From: a virus
Lineage: Duplodnaviria > Heunggongvirae > Uroviricota > Caudoviricetes
Direction: 5' to 3' (one strand)
IMG/VR virus record: IMGVR_UViG_3300023174_000034
Length of the DNA: 64,000 nt
In this document: positions 22,697 to 32,699 of the stretch, piece after piece
Layout: each line of letters opens with the position of its first letter
How positions within the stretch are numbered: position 1 is the stretch's first letter
Made by a program: the position numbers and the translations under genes
Notes under the pieces: generated by a model
Database searches by the model: none
What the model was told of the DNA's origin: nothing
The model's input: the letters and a program-made list of their open reading frames with translations, nothing else

Positions 22697-24253
22697 ATGC
22701 GATACTTAGAACTATTTGAAAACCTAGATCAGCTAACCACTCCAGAGTTGGACTCAATGAAAAGCATCATTGCTGGCAAAATTAAGTTGTTGCCAGATGA
22801 TGATGCTACTGCAAAAACTCTGCGTGAAATTGAAGAACTACTACAGCACGTGAATGCTGGAGGACGCATGGGCATGATCAAAGGGCGTTTACAAAAGATC
22901 AATGATCCTGCTGTGATGGCAAGCCAAAAGAAACTGGCACAGTATTTGGCCAGCATGGAAGTGTCGCCCAAAGATCGCGATGAGTTGTTCAGCCTGTGGG
23001 CCGCAGACAAACTTGTAAACATTGATAAACTATTGAGTAAAAACTCACACACCTTCAGTGACATCTTCAATGGTTATGACAGTAATCCTGCCATCAAAGA
23101 GCTTGTGGATGATGTGATGGAAGAACAAGCCCTGGGCCAAGGCAAGGGCGAGTTTGGTCTAAACGTACTAAGCAAGAGCGTGAGTAAGCCCGGGAACTTT
23201 GTACAGAACCAAACAACTGATGTTGACGGCGATGGCGACAAAGAAGAAGCCAAAGGCGACTTGTTGGTCAAACTGGACAACAAGTGGATCAAAGTTGAAG
23301 TTAAAACAACACACGGCGGCGCCGCACGTTTCTCAGATCAAGAAGTACGTCCGGCAGAAGGCTACGAAGCCGCTGCCACTGCACTCAACCGTTTTGTAGT
23401 TGGATTCAGCAAGCAATCCTGGTTCAAAGAATTGTTTCCTAAAGGTGTTCCTGCCTACGGTGTAAACATGAACAAAGCAATGGCCATGTATCAATTGATG
23501 AAAGACGGCGAGTATGGCGAAAAGCTACTGTCTCAAGTTCAAAATCTGGTCACACTGATCTTTGGCGGCAAAAAAGCAGATGCTAAAATGGTTAAAAATA
23601 TCATGTCAAACTTCAAGGCCAATAATGCCAATGAAGTGCTACAGTTGTATTCGCAAGCAAGTTTCAACTACTACATGAGCAAAAAGGATGATGCTGGTGT
23701 ACTAAGTATCAACCTGAACAGCAAGGCTTTTGTGTTTTATTCTGATGCAAATGATCTCAAGAAAGCCAAAATGCGTTTGAATACAGACACAATTTATCTA
23801 AGTGCCAAAGATGCCAACCGCGGTGCATACCCGCAGTTGAGTGTTATTCCCACAACCTTTGGTGCAAATGCCAAAGCCAAAGCTGAAAAAGATGCACAGA
23901 AGCAAGCAATCAAAACAGCCAAAGCAAACCCAGTTGATGTTCCTAGTCTCGATGGCACCAAGAAACAACAGATCGAAGCCAAGGTATCTGAATTTGTTAC
24001 AAACGTGGCCACAGCCAAGGGTATCTTTGATCAGGACGCAATTGATGCTGCCACAATGCAAGCAGTAGATCTTATTGTACAAGGTGTACCCACTGCCAAG
24101 ATCAAATCAATGATCAACTCTTTGCTAACACAAAGTAAAGCAGCCGCAGAAGTTCCAGCTGAACCTGCAGAGCCGATACAACCCACGACACCACAACAGC
24201 CCATAGCGGCCACAACCAGACCGCAATTCCCAACACCCAGACCTGGCGGTTGA
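22697..24253 (+). CDS. Hypothetical late protein with possible PD-(D/E)xK nuclease core
   Basis: GKGEFGL..KGDLLV..VEVKT; ATAAATA at 22672. Confidence 0.5.
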   Translation: MRYLELFENLDQLTTPELDSMKSIIAGKIKLLPDDDATAKTLREIEELLQHVNAGGRMGMIKGRLQKINDPAVMASQKKLAQYLASMEVSPKDRDELFSLWAADKLVNIDKLLSKNSHTFSDIFNGYDSNPAIKELVDDVMEEQALGQGKGEFGLNVLSKSVSKPGNFVQNQTTDVDGDGDKEEAKGDLLVKLDNKWIKVEVKTTHGGAARFSDQEVRPAEGYEAAATALNRFVVGFSKQSWFKELFPKGVPAYGVNMNKAMAMYQLMKDGEYGEKLLSQVQNLVTLIFGGKKADAKMVKNIMSNFKANNANEVLQLYSQASFNYYMSKKDDAGVLSINLNSKAFVFYSDANDLKKAKMRLNTDTIYLSAKDANRGAYPQLSVIPTTFGANAKAKAEKDAQKQAIKTAKANPVDVPSLDGTKKQQIEAKVSEFVTNVATAKGIFDQDAIDAATMQAVDLIVQGVPTAKIKSMINSLLTQSKAAAEVPAEPAEPIQPTTPQQPIAATTRPQFPTPRPGG

Positions 24254-24278
24254 CACTAAGTCAACCCTAGCATATAAT
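24250..24278 (+). promoter_or_regulatory. Consensus sigma70 promoter for the upstream tRNAs
   Basis: TTGACA-N17-TATAAT, 8 nt before a tRNA. Confidence 0.88.
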
Positions 24279-24286
24279 ACACACTC

Positions 24287-24363
24287 GGGCCGATAGCTTA
24301 GTGTCCTAAAGCAGTGGCCTCATAAGCCATTGATCCTGGGTTAGAATCCCAGTCGGCCCACCA
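24287..24363 (+). tRNA. tRNA CAT anticodon, probably Ile2 (lysidine type)
   Basis: Cloverleaf, loop CTCATAA, G1-C72, C4/C5 acceptor pairs, CCA; atypical T-loop TTAGAAT. Confidence 0.8.
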
Positions 24364-24368
24364 AACAC

Positions 24369-24443
24369 CTGGCGTTAGTATAACGGATAATACAGTAAGC
24401 TTCTACCTTACGAATACGGGTTCGATTCCTGTGCGCCGGACCA
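24369..24443 (+). tRNA. tRNA-Arg(TCT)
   Basis: GTAAG-CTTCTAC-CTTAC anticodon arm; CCA. Confidence 0.88.
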
Positions 24444-24459
24444 AGACATAAGTAAATGC

Positions 24460-24927
24460 ATGGAACAAAAATCAAACCTTGCCAAGGGTAGAGACAGTTA
24501 TGATTCTACTAGCACAGGCGCAATGATTCCGTTTTTCAATCGAAACGTCACACCTTACCCAACAGAAGCAGGTGGTCCTAAGTTTGACCTTGTGCCTGTG
24601 ACACAGCAAAAAGATCTCATGATCAACCATGCCAGGATGTATGCCCAGCAAGAGTATGACAGGATCATGGAACTGGTAGTTGTGCTGGAAAAACAAGCAC
24701 AAGCCATCAAGCGTAGATTAGATATCACTGATGCAGTGCATGCCGCAGTATATCAATTCCAGCCTGTGATGGGCAATGTGTACTGGTTGGCTTGGGATAA
24801 ACGAAAGCAACAGAATATTTTAACACCAATGGGGCCAAATGACTGGTCAAGCTCTGCACCTGAAGACTATGAATACCAGGCACAAGTAAAGTACATGGGT
24901 GACCATACCTGGTTAGAAATTGAATAA
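24460..24927 (+). CDS. Hypothetical protein (DUF2452-like)
   Basis: PYPT..GGPKF, coiled coil, FQPVMGNVYWL, D.TW tail. Confidence 0.6.
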   Translation: MEQKSNLAKGRDSYDSTSTGAMIPFFNRNVTPYPTEAGGPKFDLVPVTQQKDLMINHARMYAQQEYDRIMELVVVLEKQAQAIKRRLDITDAVHAAVYQFQPVMGNVYWLAWDKRKQQNILTPMGPNDWSSSAPEDYEYQAQVKYMGDHTWLEIE

Positions 24928-24935
24928 AAACTACT

Positions 24936-25020
24936 GCGAGTATGGGGGAATTGGTAGACCCAGCGGACTTAAAATCCGCCGCCGTTAGGCGTACCGGTTC
25001 GACTCCGGTTACTCGTACCA
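24936..25020 (+). tRNA. tRNA-Leu(TAA)
   Basis: GCGGA-CTTAAAA-TCCGC; long variable arm; CCA. Confidence 0.93.
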
Positions 25021-25063: not shown

Positions 25064-25240
25064 ATGTCAGAGACACATGCCCGTACAATCGTCCGTACAG
25101 TAAGTTATAGAATAACAGCCCTGCTGATCACAGCAATTTGGACTGGACTAGGTGATGCAATAGTGATCCATATAGTTCTAGCAACATTGCATTATGCCAT
25201 GGAACGTGCCTGGCTCAAAATACACTGGGGAAAACTATGA
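25064..25240 (+). CDS. Small membrane protein (DUF2061-like), not in the ORF track
   Basis: MSETHARTIVRTVSYRI...HYAMERAWLKIHWG; overlaps the next start. Confidence 0.75.
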   Translation: MSETHARTIVRTVSYRITALLITAIWTGLGDAIVIHIVLATLHYAMERAWLKIHWGKL

Positions 25241-26112
25241 ACTATCACTTGCATGAAAACGGCTGGACTGTGATCCTGGATGATTTTGACTTTGCCACAG
25301 CCACACAAGAAGATATCAATGAAATTGGTTGTTTGTTAGCAACCAATACCCTTGTAGTTGCTCACGACCAAAATCATCTCACAGTACAAGACGAAGTGCA
25401 TGTGGCACAAATGTTTGGCACAGTAGAAGATTTATCAGCAGTGGCAGATGTGCCACCTTACAATCATATCTTGGTACCAGGTAGTGGTAACAAAATGGAA
25501 CGGGTGACCGGTGAACTAGATGAACACGGACTGCCTGGCTTGTTTGGTCACGTGAGTGATCTTGATTGGCATTGCAATCAGCCAGGTGATCCTCAGCGCA
25601 AGCCACTAGTTTGGTTGTTGGGTGTGCGTGGTACCGAAGGTAGCAGGACCAGTTGGACCAACAACATCCTGGCCTACGATGATTTGAGCGAAGAAGAAAA
25701 GCAAACTTTTGCGGACTTTCGTATGGTGTGTGGTTGGAAACGCTACAGCTACAGCGAGTTTGACTTTGGTGGTGCCAAACAAGGTCGGCAAGAAGACTTC
25801 AACGAACACTACACACCAAATCTTGTGCATACCAACATTGGACGCAAGACAGGACTATTTTTTCCGTTTTTGCAATTTCGTAACTTTGTGGGGTTGACAG
25901 AAAGCATGAGCAAGCGCATAATACAAGACTTACGCGATCATGTGTTGCAAGACAAATACATTTACCATCATGACTGGAAGGATGGGGATGTAGTGATCTC
26001 GGAACAGTGGTTGGGAATACACAAGCGTTGGAAGTTCGATGGCATGCCTGATCGTGTGCTACACCGTACAACATTTGACTTTGCCAACTGCGATCTAAGT
26101 AAAATTAGTTAA
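25237..26112 (+). CDS. TauD/TfdA-family dioxygenase
   Basis: WHCN, TSWTN..AYDDLS, YHHDWKDGDVVI..Q...HKR...RVLHR. Confidence 0.82.
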   Translation: MNYHLHENGWTVILDDFDFATATQEDINEIGCLLATNTLVVAHDQNHLTVQDEVHVAQMFGTVEDLSAVADVPPYNHILVPGSGNKMERVTGELDEHGLPGLFGHVSDLDWHCNQPGDPQRKPLVWLLGVRGTEGSRTSWTNNILAYDDLSEEEKQTFADFRMVCGWKRYSYSEFDFGGAKQGRQEDFNEHYTPNLVHTNIGRKTGLFFPFLQFRNFVGLTESMSKRIIQDLRDHVLQDKYIYHHDWKDGDVVISEQWLGIHKRWKFDGMPDRVLHRTTFDFANCDLSKIS

Positions 26113-26155: not shown

Positions 26156-26184
26156 TTGACAGCATTGCTAAATATCTCTACAAT
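26156..26184 (+). promoter_or_regulatory. sigma70 promoter P1 of the leader/tRNA operon
   Basis: TTGACA-N17-TACAAT. Confidence 0.85.
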
Positions 26185-26238
26185 ACAAGACATACACAGC
26201 GTATAGTACGCTAGGTATCAAAAGGAAAAAGAAACAAA

Positions 26239-26379
26239 ATGAAATCGACATTCGTTCTCAACTGCAAACAGCATAGCCAAGCATATTCATTTATGCCGGT
26301 GGCCTTGTGGTCTGCGACTGAGATTAGTAATGATCGCACACTACCAGGCACCAAGGGTCCAGGAGATTCGCATAGTTAA
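26239..26379 (+). CDS. Putative attenuator leader peptide, 46 aa: MKSTFVLNCKQHSQAYSFMPVALWSATEISNDRTLPGTKGPGDSHS
   Basis: SD AAAGGA at 26221-26226; uses all 20 amino acids; 37 distinct codons among the first 40; its 3' end overlaps the antiterminator arm. Confidence 0.72.
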   Translation: MKSTFVLNCKQHSQAYSFMPVALWSATEISNDRTLPGTKGPGDSHS

Positions 26380-26414
26380 CACAAATTAACTCAGCAAACT
26401 CCAAGGACCCTAGG
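26351..26414 (+). promoter_or_regulatory. Antiterminator hairpin, mutually exclusive with the terminator
   Basis: CCAAGGGTCC-A-GGAG (26351-65) pairs with CTCC-AA-GGACCCTAGG (26399-414); apical AGTTAA/TTAACT stem contains the leader stop codon. Confidence 0.72.
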
Positions 26415-26442
26415 CTTAAAAACCCTGGGGTTTTTTGTTTTT
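26405..26442 (+). terminator. Intrinsic terminator (attenuator)
   Basis: ACCCTAGG-CTTAAAAAC-CCTGGGGT followed by TTTTTGTTTTT. Confidence 0.85.
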
Positions 26443-26454
26443 AGGATCATGAAA

Positions 26455-26731
26455 AGTGTGTATAGGGAACGCGACCCTGCTGGCACTATAAACATCGGCT
26501 ATAATGAGGGCGGCTTACCGGATGAGAAGTCTGTGGTGGAAACGCAGATGGTAAAATGGTAACGTATTAAAGCATTCTCTACCCGCGAGGGGACAAGTGG
26601 GTTCATCCATGTAGAGTGCTTTAATACCTGCATTGGATGGCCAAGCCTAACCGACTGTGAATCGGCAGGCGGCAGGTTGTGGACGCAACAACCAGTGCAG
26701 TAAAAACAAAGACCTTACAGCTTGTAGGGTT
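26455..26731 (+). ncRNA. Unidentified structured RNA region (series of hairpins)
   Basis: No credible ORF; stems at 26516-26562, 26564-26627, 26628-26700 and 26711-26731. Confidence 0.5.
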
Positions 26732-26744
26732 ATAAAAACAGAGG

Positions 26745-26772
26745 TTGACGTTTTCGCAAAAGATGTTATACT
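26745..26772 (+). promoter_or_regulatory. sigma70 promoter P2 (extended -10)
   Basis: TTGACG-N16-TATACT with TGn upstream of the -10. Confidence 0.65.
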
Positions 26773-26833
26773 TGTGGAACTGTAGCAAACATCGTGTTGC
26801 TAGAACAACTGCATACTCATGCAGACGAATACA

Positions 26834-26847
26834 GTTCATTAACAATC
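26834..26847 (+). promoter_or_regulatory. rrn-type boxA antitermination element
   Basis: GTTCATTAACAATC versus rrn boxA GCTCTTTAACAAT, just before the first array tRNA. Confidence 0.6.
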
Positions 26848-26861
26848 TGTTGTGACAAATT

Positions 26862-26946: not shown

Positions 26947-27153
26947 TATTAAAATGTATTAGAGGTTGTCAGCACCGCTAGGTGCTTGCACTGAGGATAA
27001 CTAGCTGACGGGCTGGCTCTGTGCAACGCACATGAAAGTTGAGGGGAAACCCAAGTATGACACGGTGGAGTATGCTGAACTGTAATGACGAAGCGGAAGT
27101 AGCAGGAGACGGTCCTGTGAGGTAAGTGGAGTTCCTGTAGTATGTTTTAATAT
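26947..27153 (+). ncRNA. Unidentified structured RNA closed by a 16-bp stem
   Basis: ATATTAAAATGTATTA / TAGTATGTTTTAATAT termini; internal hairpins. Confidence 0.5.
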
Positions 27154-27325: not shown

Positions 27326-27401
27326 GCTTCGTTAGCTCAATTGGGAGAGCGCGACACTGTCACTGTCGAGGTAAGGGGATCGAAACCCCTACGAGGCGCC
27401 A
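27326..27401 (+). tRNA. tRNA-Asp(GTC)
   Basis: CGACA-CTGTCAC-TGTCG; G73; T-loop ATCGAAA. Confidence 0.9.
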
Positions 27402-27404
27402 AGT

Positions 27405-27627
27405 TTTGAGAGTGTCAGCAAGTACAGTCACGCTAATGAGGTTTCTTCGAAGGACCAAGTTAGTAAAAGGGGACGGGTTCAACTCCCGGCCGATCGCTTG
27501 AATGGGATCGGCGCAGATGGTTGCTAACTGGACAGGTACCCAAGTGATATCCATCGTGCTCGAGGTCAGGCTAGGCGGCCGGTAAGTCCTGAATAAATCT
27601 ACGATAAAAGCGGCGTAGGCTCTCAAA
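27405..27627 (+). ncRNA. Unidentified ~220-nt structured RNA with tRNA-like loops
   Basis: TTTGAGAG/CTCTCAAA closing stem; T-loop-like CGGGTTCAACTCCCG; 7-nt loop CTTCGAA. Confidence 0.55.
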
Positions 27628-28037: not shown

Positions 28038-28058
28038 ATGAAACGAGGTAAACTCTAG
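28038..28058 (+). other. Mini-ORF MKRGKL* followed by a hairpin/pseudoknot
   Basis: SD GGAGA at 28028; stem 28058-28095 begins at the TAG. Confidence 0.4.
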
Positions 28059-28118
28059 TGTCACTCTAGGCATCCGTATGGTCTAGGGTTGGCACGTAAA
28101 ATCAAACGATACGTACAA

Positions 28119-31241: not shown

Positions 31242-31640
31242 ATGATGAATAGAGTTTTTGTTAATGGTACGTTTGATATCCTGCATCCAGGCCATGTGAT
31301 GTTGTTGCAGTATGCGGCCAGTCTTGGTCAAGTCACAGTTGCCATTGACACAGACCGTCGGGTACGCCAGCTGAAAGGCGCAGGTCGTCCGTTCTTTAAT
31401 CAAGACGAACGCCGACTAATGCTACAAGGTCTAAAGTATGTGAGCAAGGTATGTACCTTTGACACAGATCAAGAACTAGAATACCTTATTCAAACCAGCG
31501 AACCAGACATCATGGTCAAAGGCAGTGATTACCGTGGGCGTCCAATCATTGGAGAAGAGCACGTGCCACACATAGAATTTTTTGAAAGACTTGATGAGTA
31601 CTCCAGTACAAAAGCAATTCAACATATTGTTACTAGGTGA
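31242..31640 (+). CDS. Nucleotidylyltransferase (HldC/RfaE domain II-like)
   Basis: GTFDILHPGH, DTDRRVRQLKGAGRP, VKGSDY, YSST. Confidence 0.9.
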   Translation: MMNRVFVNGTFDILHPGHVMLLQYAASLGQVTVAIDTDRRVRQLKGAGRPFFNQDERRLMLQGLKYVSKVCTFDTDQELEYLIQTSEPDIMVKGSDYRGRPIIGEEHVPHIEFFERLDEYSSTKAIQHIVTR

Positions 31641-32343
31641 CAGTTGTTTAGACGTTTATCAATACGGCACAGTTGATCGCATGAGTCCAGAAGCTCCTGT
31701 TCCTGTGTTTGTGCCTGCACATGAAGAAACCCGTCCGGGCATGGCGTCCAATGTATATGAAAATCTCAAAGCACTTGGGCTGACTGCAAATTTTATCACA
31801 GGGCAAGAAGGCACAAAGACCAGACTGATTGACAGTCGTAGCAAGCAACAGATTGTTCGCATTGATGCTGATGTCAAAAACGATCCGCTAGTGTTTGAAA
31901 CAGCAATACCACAAGTGTATCATGCCATTGTGATCAGCGACTACAACAAAGGCTTGATCACATACGAACTGGTAGAAGAACTACGTAGAGAATTTCCAGG
32001 TCCTATTTTCATTGACACCAAGAAGCAGGACCTAAAACGATTTGAAGGTTGCATTGTAAAGATCAACGAAGTTGAATACAAGGCAAGACACAGCGATTGT
32101 ACTGACATGATTGTAACGCTGGGCAAAGCAGGCGCTTTGCACAATTTTGTCATGTATCCGGCGCCTGAAATAGACGTTACTGACGTGTGTGGAGCCGGTG
32201 ATACATTCCTTGCCGCACTGGCATATGAATATCTAAATACAGACGGTGACATGAGCCAAGCAATTCAATTTGCTATTCGGGCCAGCGCCGTCACTGTACA
32301 ACACACAGGTGTGTACGCACCCCGATTAGAGGAAATCAAATGA
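31594..32343 (+). CDS. PfkB-family heptose kinase (HldA/RfaE domain I-like)
   Basis: RMSPEAPVPV, ISDYNKG, DVCGAGDTF. Confidence 0.9.
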   Translation: MSTPVQKQFNILLLGDSCLDVYQYGTVDRMSPEAPVPVFVPAHEETRPGMASNVYENLKALGLTANFITGQEGTKTRLIDSRSKQQIVRIDADVKNDPLVFETAIPQVYHAIVISDYNKGLITYELVEELRREFPGPIFIDTKKQDLKRFEGCIVKINEVEYKARHSDCTDMIVTLGKAGALHNFVMYPAPEIDVTDVCGAGDTFLAALAYEYLNTDGDMSQAIQFAIRASAVTVQHTGVYAPRLEEIK

Positions 32344-32699
32344 CACAGTTAAAAGGACTAGTACCCAAGGGGTGGGGTTCAGAGTTTATCTGGGCCACCA
32401 ATGACAAGTACTGCGGCAAGTTCATGAACTTCAATGCAGGTGCAAAGTTCAGTATGCACTTTCATCAGTTCAAAGAAGAAACCTGGTATGTACAATCAGG
32501 ACGGTTTATTGTGCGCTGGATTGACACTGCCACTGCTGAACACCATGAAAAAGAACTGCGTGATGGTGCAGTATGGCACAACGAACCCTGCAAGCCACAT
32601 CAGTTGGAATGTCTTGAAGCAGGCACAGTAATTGAGGTCAGCACACCAGACTCAGTGGAAGACAACTACAGAGTGGGCAAAGGCGACAGTCAAACGTAA
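32340..32699 (+). CDS. Cupin sugar-phosphate isomerase-like protein
   Basis: VPKGWGSE, SMHFH..KEETWYV, EVSTPD..EDNYRV. Confidence 0.8.
   Translation: MTQLKGLVPKGWGSEFIWATNDKYCGKFMNFNAGAKFSMHFHQFKEETWYVQSGRFIVRWIDTATAEHHEKELRDGAVWHNEPCKPHQLECLEAGTVIEVSTPDSVEDNYRVGKGDSQT

Follow-up and report, generated by a model that had tools for sequence, protein, structure and literature searches.

The window analysed here, a 64,000-nucleotide stretch from IMG/VR record IMGVR_UViG_3300023174_000034, is part of an uncultured jumbo myophage from a lake (with tail sheath, terminase, and SSB genes). Its nearest cultured terminases are those of PA5oct/Paride (54% identity) and of Phosso and Atu_ph07 (52%), with 43% identity to those of 121Q and GAP32; a blastn comparison of the leader region with cultured phages matched only a tRNA-Leu. 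The window contains an array of 27 tRNA genes preceded by a short leader open reading frame (ORF) and two alternative hairpins, arranged as follows:

26156–26184, + strand: P1, a sigma70-type promoter (TTGACA-17-TACAAT; score 11/12), with a putative start site at ~26190
26192–26218, + strand: hairpin at the 5′ end of the leader RNA (fold z −4.5), preceding the start codon
26220–26238, + strand: ribosome-binding region, A-rich, with a weak AGGA; an AG-rich stretch also lies 5′ of the ATG in homologs
26239–26379, + strand: leader ORF of 46 codons with all 20 amino acids, of which codons 1–37 form the putative sensing zone
26351–26365, + strand: antiterminator 5′ arm within codons 38–43, with core AGGGUCC at 26354–60 (fold and covariation)
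26374–26391, + strand: apical helix of the antiterminator, with the leader stop (26377–79) at its top (fold; varying equivalents in the alignment)
26397–26414, + strand: shared arm, both antiterminator 3′ strand and terminator 5′ strand, with GGACCCU at 26405–11 (three-way covariation)
26403–26442, + strand: intrinsic terminator with stem, 9-nt loop, and U tract at 26431–42 (computed fold)
26443–26744, + strand: stretch reached by read-through only, with structured RNA segments (26455–26630 common to 20–37 of 122 homologs)
26745–26772, + strand: P2, promoter-like TTGACG-16-TATACT with extended TG, at the same position in homologous loci L063, L095, and L194
26862–31203, + strand: array of 27 tRNA genes for all 20 amino acids
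30394–30422, + strand: P3, promoter-like site of perfect consensus, 5′ of the last seven tRNAs of the array

Upstream of P1 lies a TauD-like dioxygenase gene (25237–26112), and past the array (31242–32699) lie a heptose-pathway nucleotidyltransferase gene and adjacent sugar-pathway-like genes. A separate tRNA cluster at 24250–25020 has a perfect-consensus promoter directly 5′ of tRNA-Met, tRNA-Arg(UCU), and tRNA-Leu(UAA), and no leader there; AGA and TTA codons are absent from the leader of the main array and the tRNAs Arg(UCU) and Leu(UAA) sit in this cluster, a coincidence that is suggestive only.

The leader ORF and its two exclusive folds

A preliminary description, drawn from the letters of the window, had proposed that the array is controlled by a translational attenuator whose leader samples nearly all codons. 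Most of the proposed anatomy was recovered: the promoter scan agrees on P1, the terminator placed at 26405–42 is computed at 26403–42 with a conserved stem and U tract, and the downstream tRNA genes number 27 for all 20 amino acids. The 46-codon ORF is likewise present, whereas its reported Shine–Dalgarno sequence amounts to a weak AGGA located ~12 nt upstream within A-rich sequence. The hairpin that precedes the start codon has candidate roles in stability or pausing; similar hairpins were noticed by eye, uncounted, in homologs.

Recounting the leader reproduced exactly the reported numbers of distinct codons, 31 over codons 1–33 and 37 over codons 1–40 (25.7 and 29.5 expected under uniform sampling), at cut-offs of 33 and 40 that were a post hoc choice, together with the occurrence of 19 amino acids by codon 33 and 20 by codon 37, the five Ser codons, the three each for Ala, Leu, Thr, and Gly, and the use of both codons for Phe, Asn, Gln, and Lys. 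Codon repetition is, however, not confined to the hairpin as had been claimed, given that three repeats (codons 10, 19, and 34) precede it. Across the entire ORF, 38 of the 46 codons are distinct, a count that has P=0.012 when codons are sampled uniformly and that none of 15,838 gene windows reaches. Further, 27 of the 61 codons are missing from codons 1–37, and 20 amino acids within 46 codons has a P of about 0.02 for a single sequence. The window leader lacks the strict trp/his feature, a run of control codons for a single amino acid. Taken alone, the window makes a suggestive case; taken with its homologs, the pattern is far beyond chance.

In the free RNA, AGGGUCC (codons 39–41) pairs with GGACCCU, and the minimum-energy fold is the hairpin 26351–65/26397–414 (−27.2 kcal/mol, z −6.3), which excludes the terminator; this is the competing hairpin between codons 38–43 and the terminator 5′ arm that the preliminary description had put forward, with its partner strand now set at 26397–414. 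When the ORF is held single-stranded to ~26360 or beyond, a folding check that the same description had suggested, the terminator replaces the antiterminator. Our terminator scan overlooked this terminator because its loop is 9 nt, and Rfam covariance models, T-box included, gave no match in 26156–26860 at E≤1. RNA-library contigs from two studies, 97–98% identical, overlap the leader, and one spans the terminator (26299–26483); they are assembled contigs that leave flanking genes uncovered and carry no end, strand, or level information.

Conservation of the cassette and of leader composition

A terminator-pattern search of IMG/VR returned 120 loci, ~105 of which have the same cassette of promoter, 42–52-codon ORF, terminator, and then tRNAs; in 119 of 121 homologs, a promoter scoring at least 10/12 lies within 140 nt 5′ of the leader ATG. 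Among the homologs, GGGUCC sits mostly 20–24 nt 5′ of the leader stop and the terminator 21–29 nt 3′ of it, and the arm is translated as Arg-Val, Gly-Ser, or Gly-Pro, that is, in three frames, so it is the RNA rather than the protein that is conserved. A second homolog set, picked by leader codons alone, comprised 44 distinct sequences. Of the 308 antiterminator cells in this set, 303 are paired, the base common to both hairpins covaries with both partners (G-C-G in 25, A-T-A in 11), and three sequences show a C-G to T-A double change, all of these being counts of sequences and not of independent events. The alternative pairing that the preliminary description expected in homologs is hence present, with a three-way change at the shared base.

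Searches with other cores indicated that unrelated leader families use other complementary arm cores; because that detector required pairing, this result speaks to breadth and is no covariation test. A scan of GTDB genomes with one narrow fixed pattern found one true copy (L262), located on a 6-kb contig in a Polynucleobacter MAG that is probably a binned phage fragment and not host evidence, the other matches being tRNA-Val genes or unrelated leaders. One homolog (L188) is without the stretch between arm and terminator loop, so that its leader is fused to the terminator 3′ strand, through either natural deletion or assembly collapse at a repeat. As far as sequence can tell, the element is real, selected, and widespread.

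The leaders themselves are conserved in amino-acid completeness. Within the window's family, 105 of 116 distinct full-length leaders contain 20 amino acids and the other 11 contain 19, compared with 2.8–3.7% of phage-protein windows reaching 20 at 46–48 aa (0.04% at 31 aa) and 3–4% of random peptides with the leaders' own composition. Among representatives below 70% identity (mean 36%), 33 of 41 are complete, as opposed to 20% of column chimeras. Trp, His, and Cys each occur on average ~1.1 times per leader; His and Tyr are found in 100% of family leaders, and Cys is spread over 22 columns (the commonest holding 12%), yet is found in 90%. We conclude that the presence of each amino acid is selected and its position is not. 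Completeness is also specific to the leader frame: across 123 homologs, 88% have all 20 amino acids in this frame, whereas stop codons interrupt the remaining two frames in 115 and 123 homologs, and a full set of 20 appears there in 1% and 0%. Complete representatives occur in 12 sequence families (L397 being doubtful), with peptides down to 28 and 31 residues, and ~10 leader families unrelated to the window's are also complete. The last new amino acid ends 5–8 nt 5′ of the core in 110 of 181 leaders (Gly37 at 5 nt in the window), spacing peaks that stem from few related motifs; 5–8 nt is approximately the distance to the 3′ leading edge of a stalled ribosome.

Relative to random synonymous choice for the given peptide, the number of distinct codons is weakly elevated (z 1.7–2.3 in the family, 1.8 across 16 families), whereas the number of distinct decoding classes (NNY, NNA, NNG) is clearly elevated (z 6.7–7.6 and 3.3, respectively), the main-family z-values being inflated by shared ancestry. 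The element is therefore pan-amino-acid rather than pan-codon: of the pan-codon sensor initially proposed, the coverage of all 20 amino acids and the spread over decoding classes stand, and literal pan-codon selection as the main signal, with raw codon diversity at a z of only ~2, was rejected. Similarly, the codon diversity predicted to persist despite peptide divergence is retained as decoding-class spread and weakly as raw codons. U-ending codons are favoured in NNY boxes (145 of 185 vs. 127 expected from neighbouring genes, z 2.9, 16 families), a preference that would favour wobble-read codons. An association between leader codons and array anticodons within the family was considered and discarded, as only TTA/Leu-UAA emerged (p=0.009 uncorrected) and it fails after 24 tests.

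Other large phages have arrays split into blocks, each with its own cassette and a partial leader. For instance, L533 has one leader rich in Tyr and Glu ahead of tRNAs for Glu and Tyr and another rich in Gly and Ala ahead of tRNAs for Gly and Ala, a Gln/Pro/His leader precedes Pro, His, and Gln tRNAs in L588, and a Glu/Arg leader precedes Glu and Arg tRNAs in L737. Across 45 families with partial leaders, leader residues served by their own block show an excess of 0.161 over background, compared with 0.001 ± 0.014 for shuffled leader/block pairs (maximum 0.057 in 20,000; p<5e-5), and 90% (vs. 67%) of block amino acids occur in their own leader, in a set that includes some mis-picked ORFs, which bias against a block match. 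By its composition, the window leader is the limiting case, a complete leader before a complete array.

Cultured phages have such leaders as well. Sinorhizobium phage Phosso (PV764938; cassette at 419660–419990) encodes a 54-codon leader (419754–419918, annotated as hypothetical) with 19 amino acids; the missing one is Cys, and the tRNA-Cys of Phosso lies far from the array. The Phosso leader RNA has two exclusive computed folds. In Agrobacterium phage Atu_ph07 (NC_042013; cassette at 339060–339340, minus strand), gp469, a 42-aa product containing 18 amino acids, lies ahead of a block of 17 tRNAs and matches it except for Leu, and in the Lak-A1 gut megaphage (L767 and L768) leaders with complementary amino-acid sets precede two tRNA clusters. 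The detector used found no leader in Paride, XacN1, GAP32, 121Q, or Vibrio 2.275.O, which are related cultured jumbo phages with tRNA clusters, and a leader is therefore not needed by all.

Proposed control of the tRNA array

We consider it very likely that the element is a transcription attenuator under ribosome control, one that monitors tRNA supply and raises phage tRNA transcription upon shortage; the attenuator geometry, direction, and link to the array suggested in the preliminary description gain support from conservation, covariation, and the leader/block match in other phages. In this scheme, RNA polymerase would start at P1 and a ribosome would translate the leader. Under smooth decoding, the ribosome would cover the AGGGUCC arm and come to sit at the stop, 21–38 nt short of the terminator core, a distance at which a terminating ribosome leaves the terminator free; with the arm covered, the terminator would fold and transcription would end near 26440. 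A stall at any of codons 1–37, or a lack of initiation, would allow the arm to capture the terminator 5′ strand, and with the antiterminator formed the polymerase would read through into the array. That translation would favour termination and stalling would favour read-through is supported by the folding model and by analogy with known attenuators. We infer that the leader is translated and that read-through is stall-dependent, as we do the trigger and the share of tRNA output due to P1. The leader presumably holds all 20 amino acids and spreads over decoding classes because the array serves all 20. Since the rare residues occur about once each, the switch should answer deep stalls, such as tRNA cleavage or loss and severe starvation would bring about, or summed slowdown; candidate natural triggers are an anticodon nuclease, starvation, and generally slow translation.

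Alternatively, the attenuator may gauge how fast translation runs overall, or how many ribosomes are available (like toiL, discussed below), the full set simply averaging codons. Such a gauge, which we hold to be unlikely, would fit an RNA that is antiterminator by default when untranslated, so that any block gives read-through, single control codons that are weak sensors, and a raw codon diversity barely above random synonymous choice; however, averaging needs no strict completeness, and Cys, His, and Tyr are retained although their columns shift, while the match of partial leaders to their own blocks requires amino-acid-specific sensing.

The attenuator is not the sole input to the array. 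P2, which is conserved in the window's subfamily, bypasses the attenuator, as does P3, and the attenuator therefore probably enhances array expression instead of being its only gate; on our reading, the attenuated P1 transcript would add to those from P2 and P3 to give basal plus inducible expression. Promoter-like sites occur within arrays at 0.53/kb, compared with 0.14/kb on the other strand, and between the terminator and the first tRNA in 34 of 121 homologs. The preliminary description had allowed that the array might be transcribed wholly from 26745 and 30394; bypass sites do exist here, but 87 of the 121 homologs have none in the gap.

Directly past the terminator, 76 of 123 relatives have an ORF of >45 codons that is missing from the window. 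These ORFs mostly belong to one conserved 50–60-aa family (L002:763-915:- and 21 others aligned), which is charged, probably helical, and without a Pfam or Atlas assignment, and may be a translation-related protein co-induced with the tRNAs. Non-tRNA segments predicted to be structured, at 26455–26630, 27400–27500, and 28040–28110, are common to 20–50 of 122 loci, some with RNA-library contigs, and have no match in Rfam. A boxA-like site in the gap was rejected (8 of 123 vs. 13 on the reverse strand), and a tRNA decoy at 26628–26700 gained no support, as neither ARAGORN nor Rfam made a call there, the computed fold lacks a cloverleaf, and only ~5 of 122 homologs share the segment. Within the array, a 200-nt insert with a long closing stem (26948–27153, −68 kcal/mol) lies between tRNA-Leu and tRNA-Tyr and is shared by only 3 homologs.

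The conserved P2, the structured gap segments, and the ORFs behind the terminator in relatives would suit an attenuator that is real and has as its main targets the RNA segments from the terminator to P2 (in relatives, the small protein), the tRNAs being transcribed from internal promoters. We find this very improbable, given the many homologs without a gap promoter, the position of the first tRNA 10–60 nt past the terminator in other leader families, the absence in the terminator scan of any terminator between 26443 and the array, and a leader content that follows tRNA content. Scarcely credible is a functional peptide (an arrest peptide or small protein) followed by a plain terminator, for although the main family keeps W, D, and R nearly invariant, with a conserved W and DRTPE, leaders average 36% identity, end in three different frames, share only completeness with unrelated leaders, and have no match in Pfam, NCBIfam, PHROGs, or Atlas, and the antiterminator covaries.

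Known systems and significance

The leaders trpL, hisL, and pheL and the multivalent thrL and ilvGMEDA leaders are leader-peptide attenuators of amino-acid operons; classical attenuators use tandem control codons, and the multivalent among them respond to two or three amino acids. Translation-supply genes are also under tRNA-charging control, as in the E. coli pheST attenuator and T-box riboswitches. Like the attenuators of amino-acid operons (e.g., pheL; PMC3082878), the phage element would combine a translated short leader, an exclusive antiterminator and terminator, and read-through upon stalling; unlike them, it would control phage tRNA genes instead of biosynthesis genes and read all 20 amino acids, mostly through single codons, and its antiterminator arm lies inside the ORF, with no separate 1:2 pause hairpin or polymerase pause identified. 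A short ORF lies between the promoter and the regulated genes, the control codons match the products of the operon (20 amino acids for a 20-amino-acid array, and the block match in 45 families), and constrained folding, covariation, and spacing point to exclusive folds controlled by ribosome position. The element thus has every feature of a leader-peptide attenuator that can be examined in sequence, and is predicted to operate like the multivalent thr/ilv attenuators. The pheST attenuator and T-boxes, by comparison, sense one amino acid each and control synthetases, and the T-box binds tRNA directly without translation.

According to its abstract, the toiL uORF of E. coli topAI is multipurpose and responds to stalls at different positions, like the phage leader, but senses antibiotics, acts via translation initiation and Rho termination, and controls a toxin; the abstract does not mention amino-acid completeness (PMC12121999). 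The Anabaena trn operon is, like the phage array, a long tRNA array (26 genes) induced by translational stress, and differs in having a protein repressor, TrcR, and in being plasmid-borne and not phage (PMC8421152, PMC10272220); the terms "attenuation," "leader," and "terminator" are absent from PMC8421152. The cis anatomy of the window is that of an attenuator. Passages of PMC10264068 describe phage tRNAs as countering host anticodon nucleases by replacing depleted host tRNA, and sensing or regulation of phage tRNA genes does not figure in those passages; a 2026 jumbo-phage review mentions tRNAs and not attenuation (PMC13282480). In the literature searched, with most subscription journals outside its scope, no account of phage tRNA genes under leader attenuation came up. 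The mechanism itself (trp/ilv-type attenuation) is known; its application to tRNA genes by means of a 20-amino-acid leader did not turn up in that literature.

For 50 years it has been debated whether phage tRNA arrays serve codon compensation or the replacement of destroyed host tRNA (PMC10264068). A stall-induced array would favour replacement on demand, which is testable in the cultured phages Phosso and Atu_ph07. Attenuation, so far covering one to three amino acids and enzyme genes, would be widened to all 20 and to genes for tRNAs; the correspondence of leader composition with block content offers a sequence rule for finding regulated tRNA operons, and the 290-nt element is a potential general reporter of tRNA failure. 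The phage probably makes extra tRNAs when host ribosomes stall for any one of them. We lean slightly towards the view that, in several large-phage lineages, this constitutes a closed feedback loop on decoding capacity in which the leader, composed of the amino acids served by its own tRNAs (all 20 where the array is complete), detects any host tRNA loss, including cleavage by anti-phage anticodon nucleases, and induces replacements. If true, it would be a counter-defence triggered by a sensor that involves no protein, and would offer direct evidence for the replacement of failing host tRNA as the reason why phage tRNA arrays exist.
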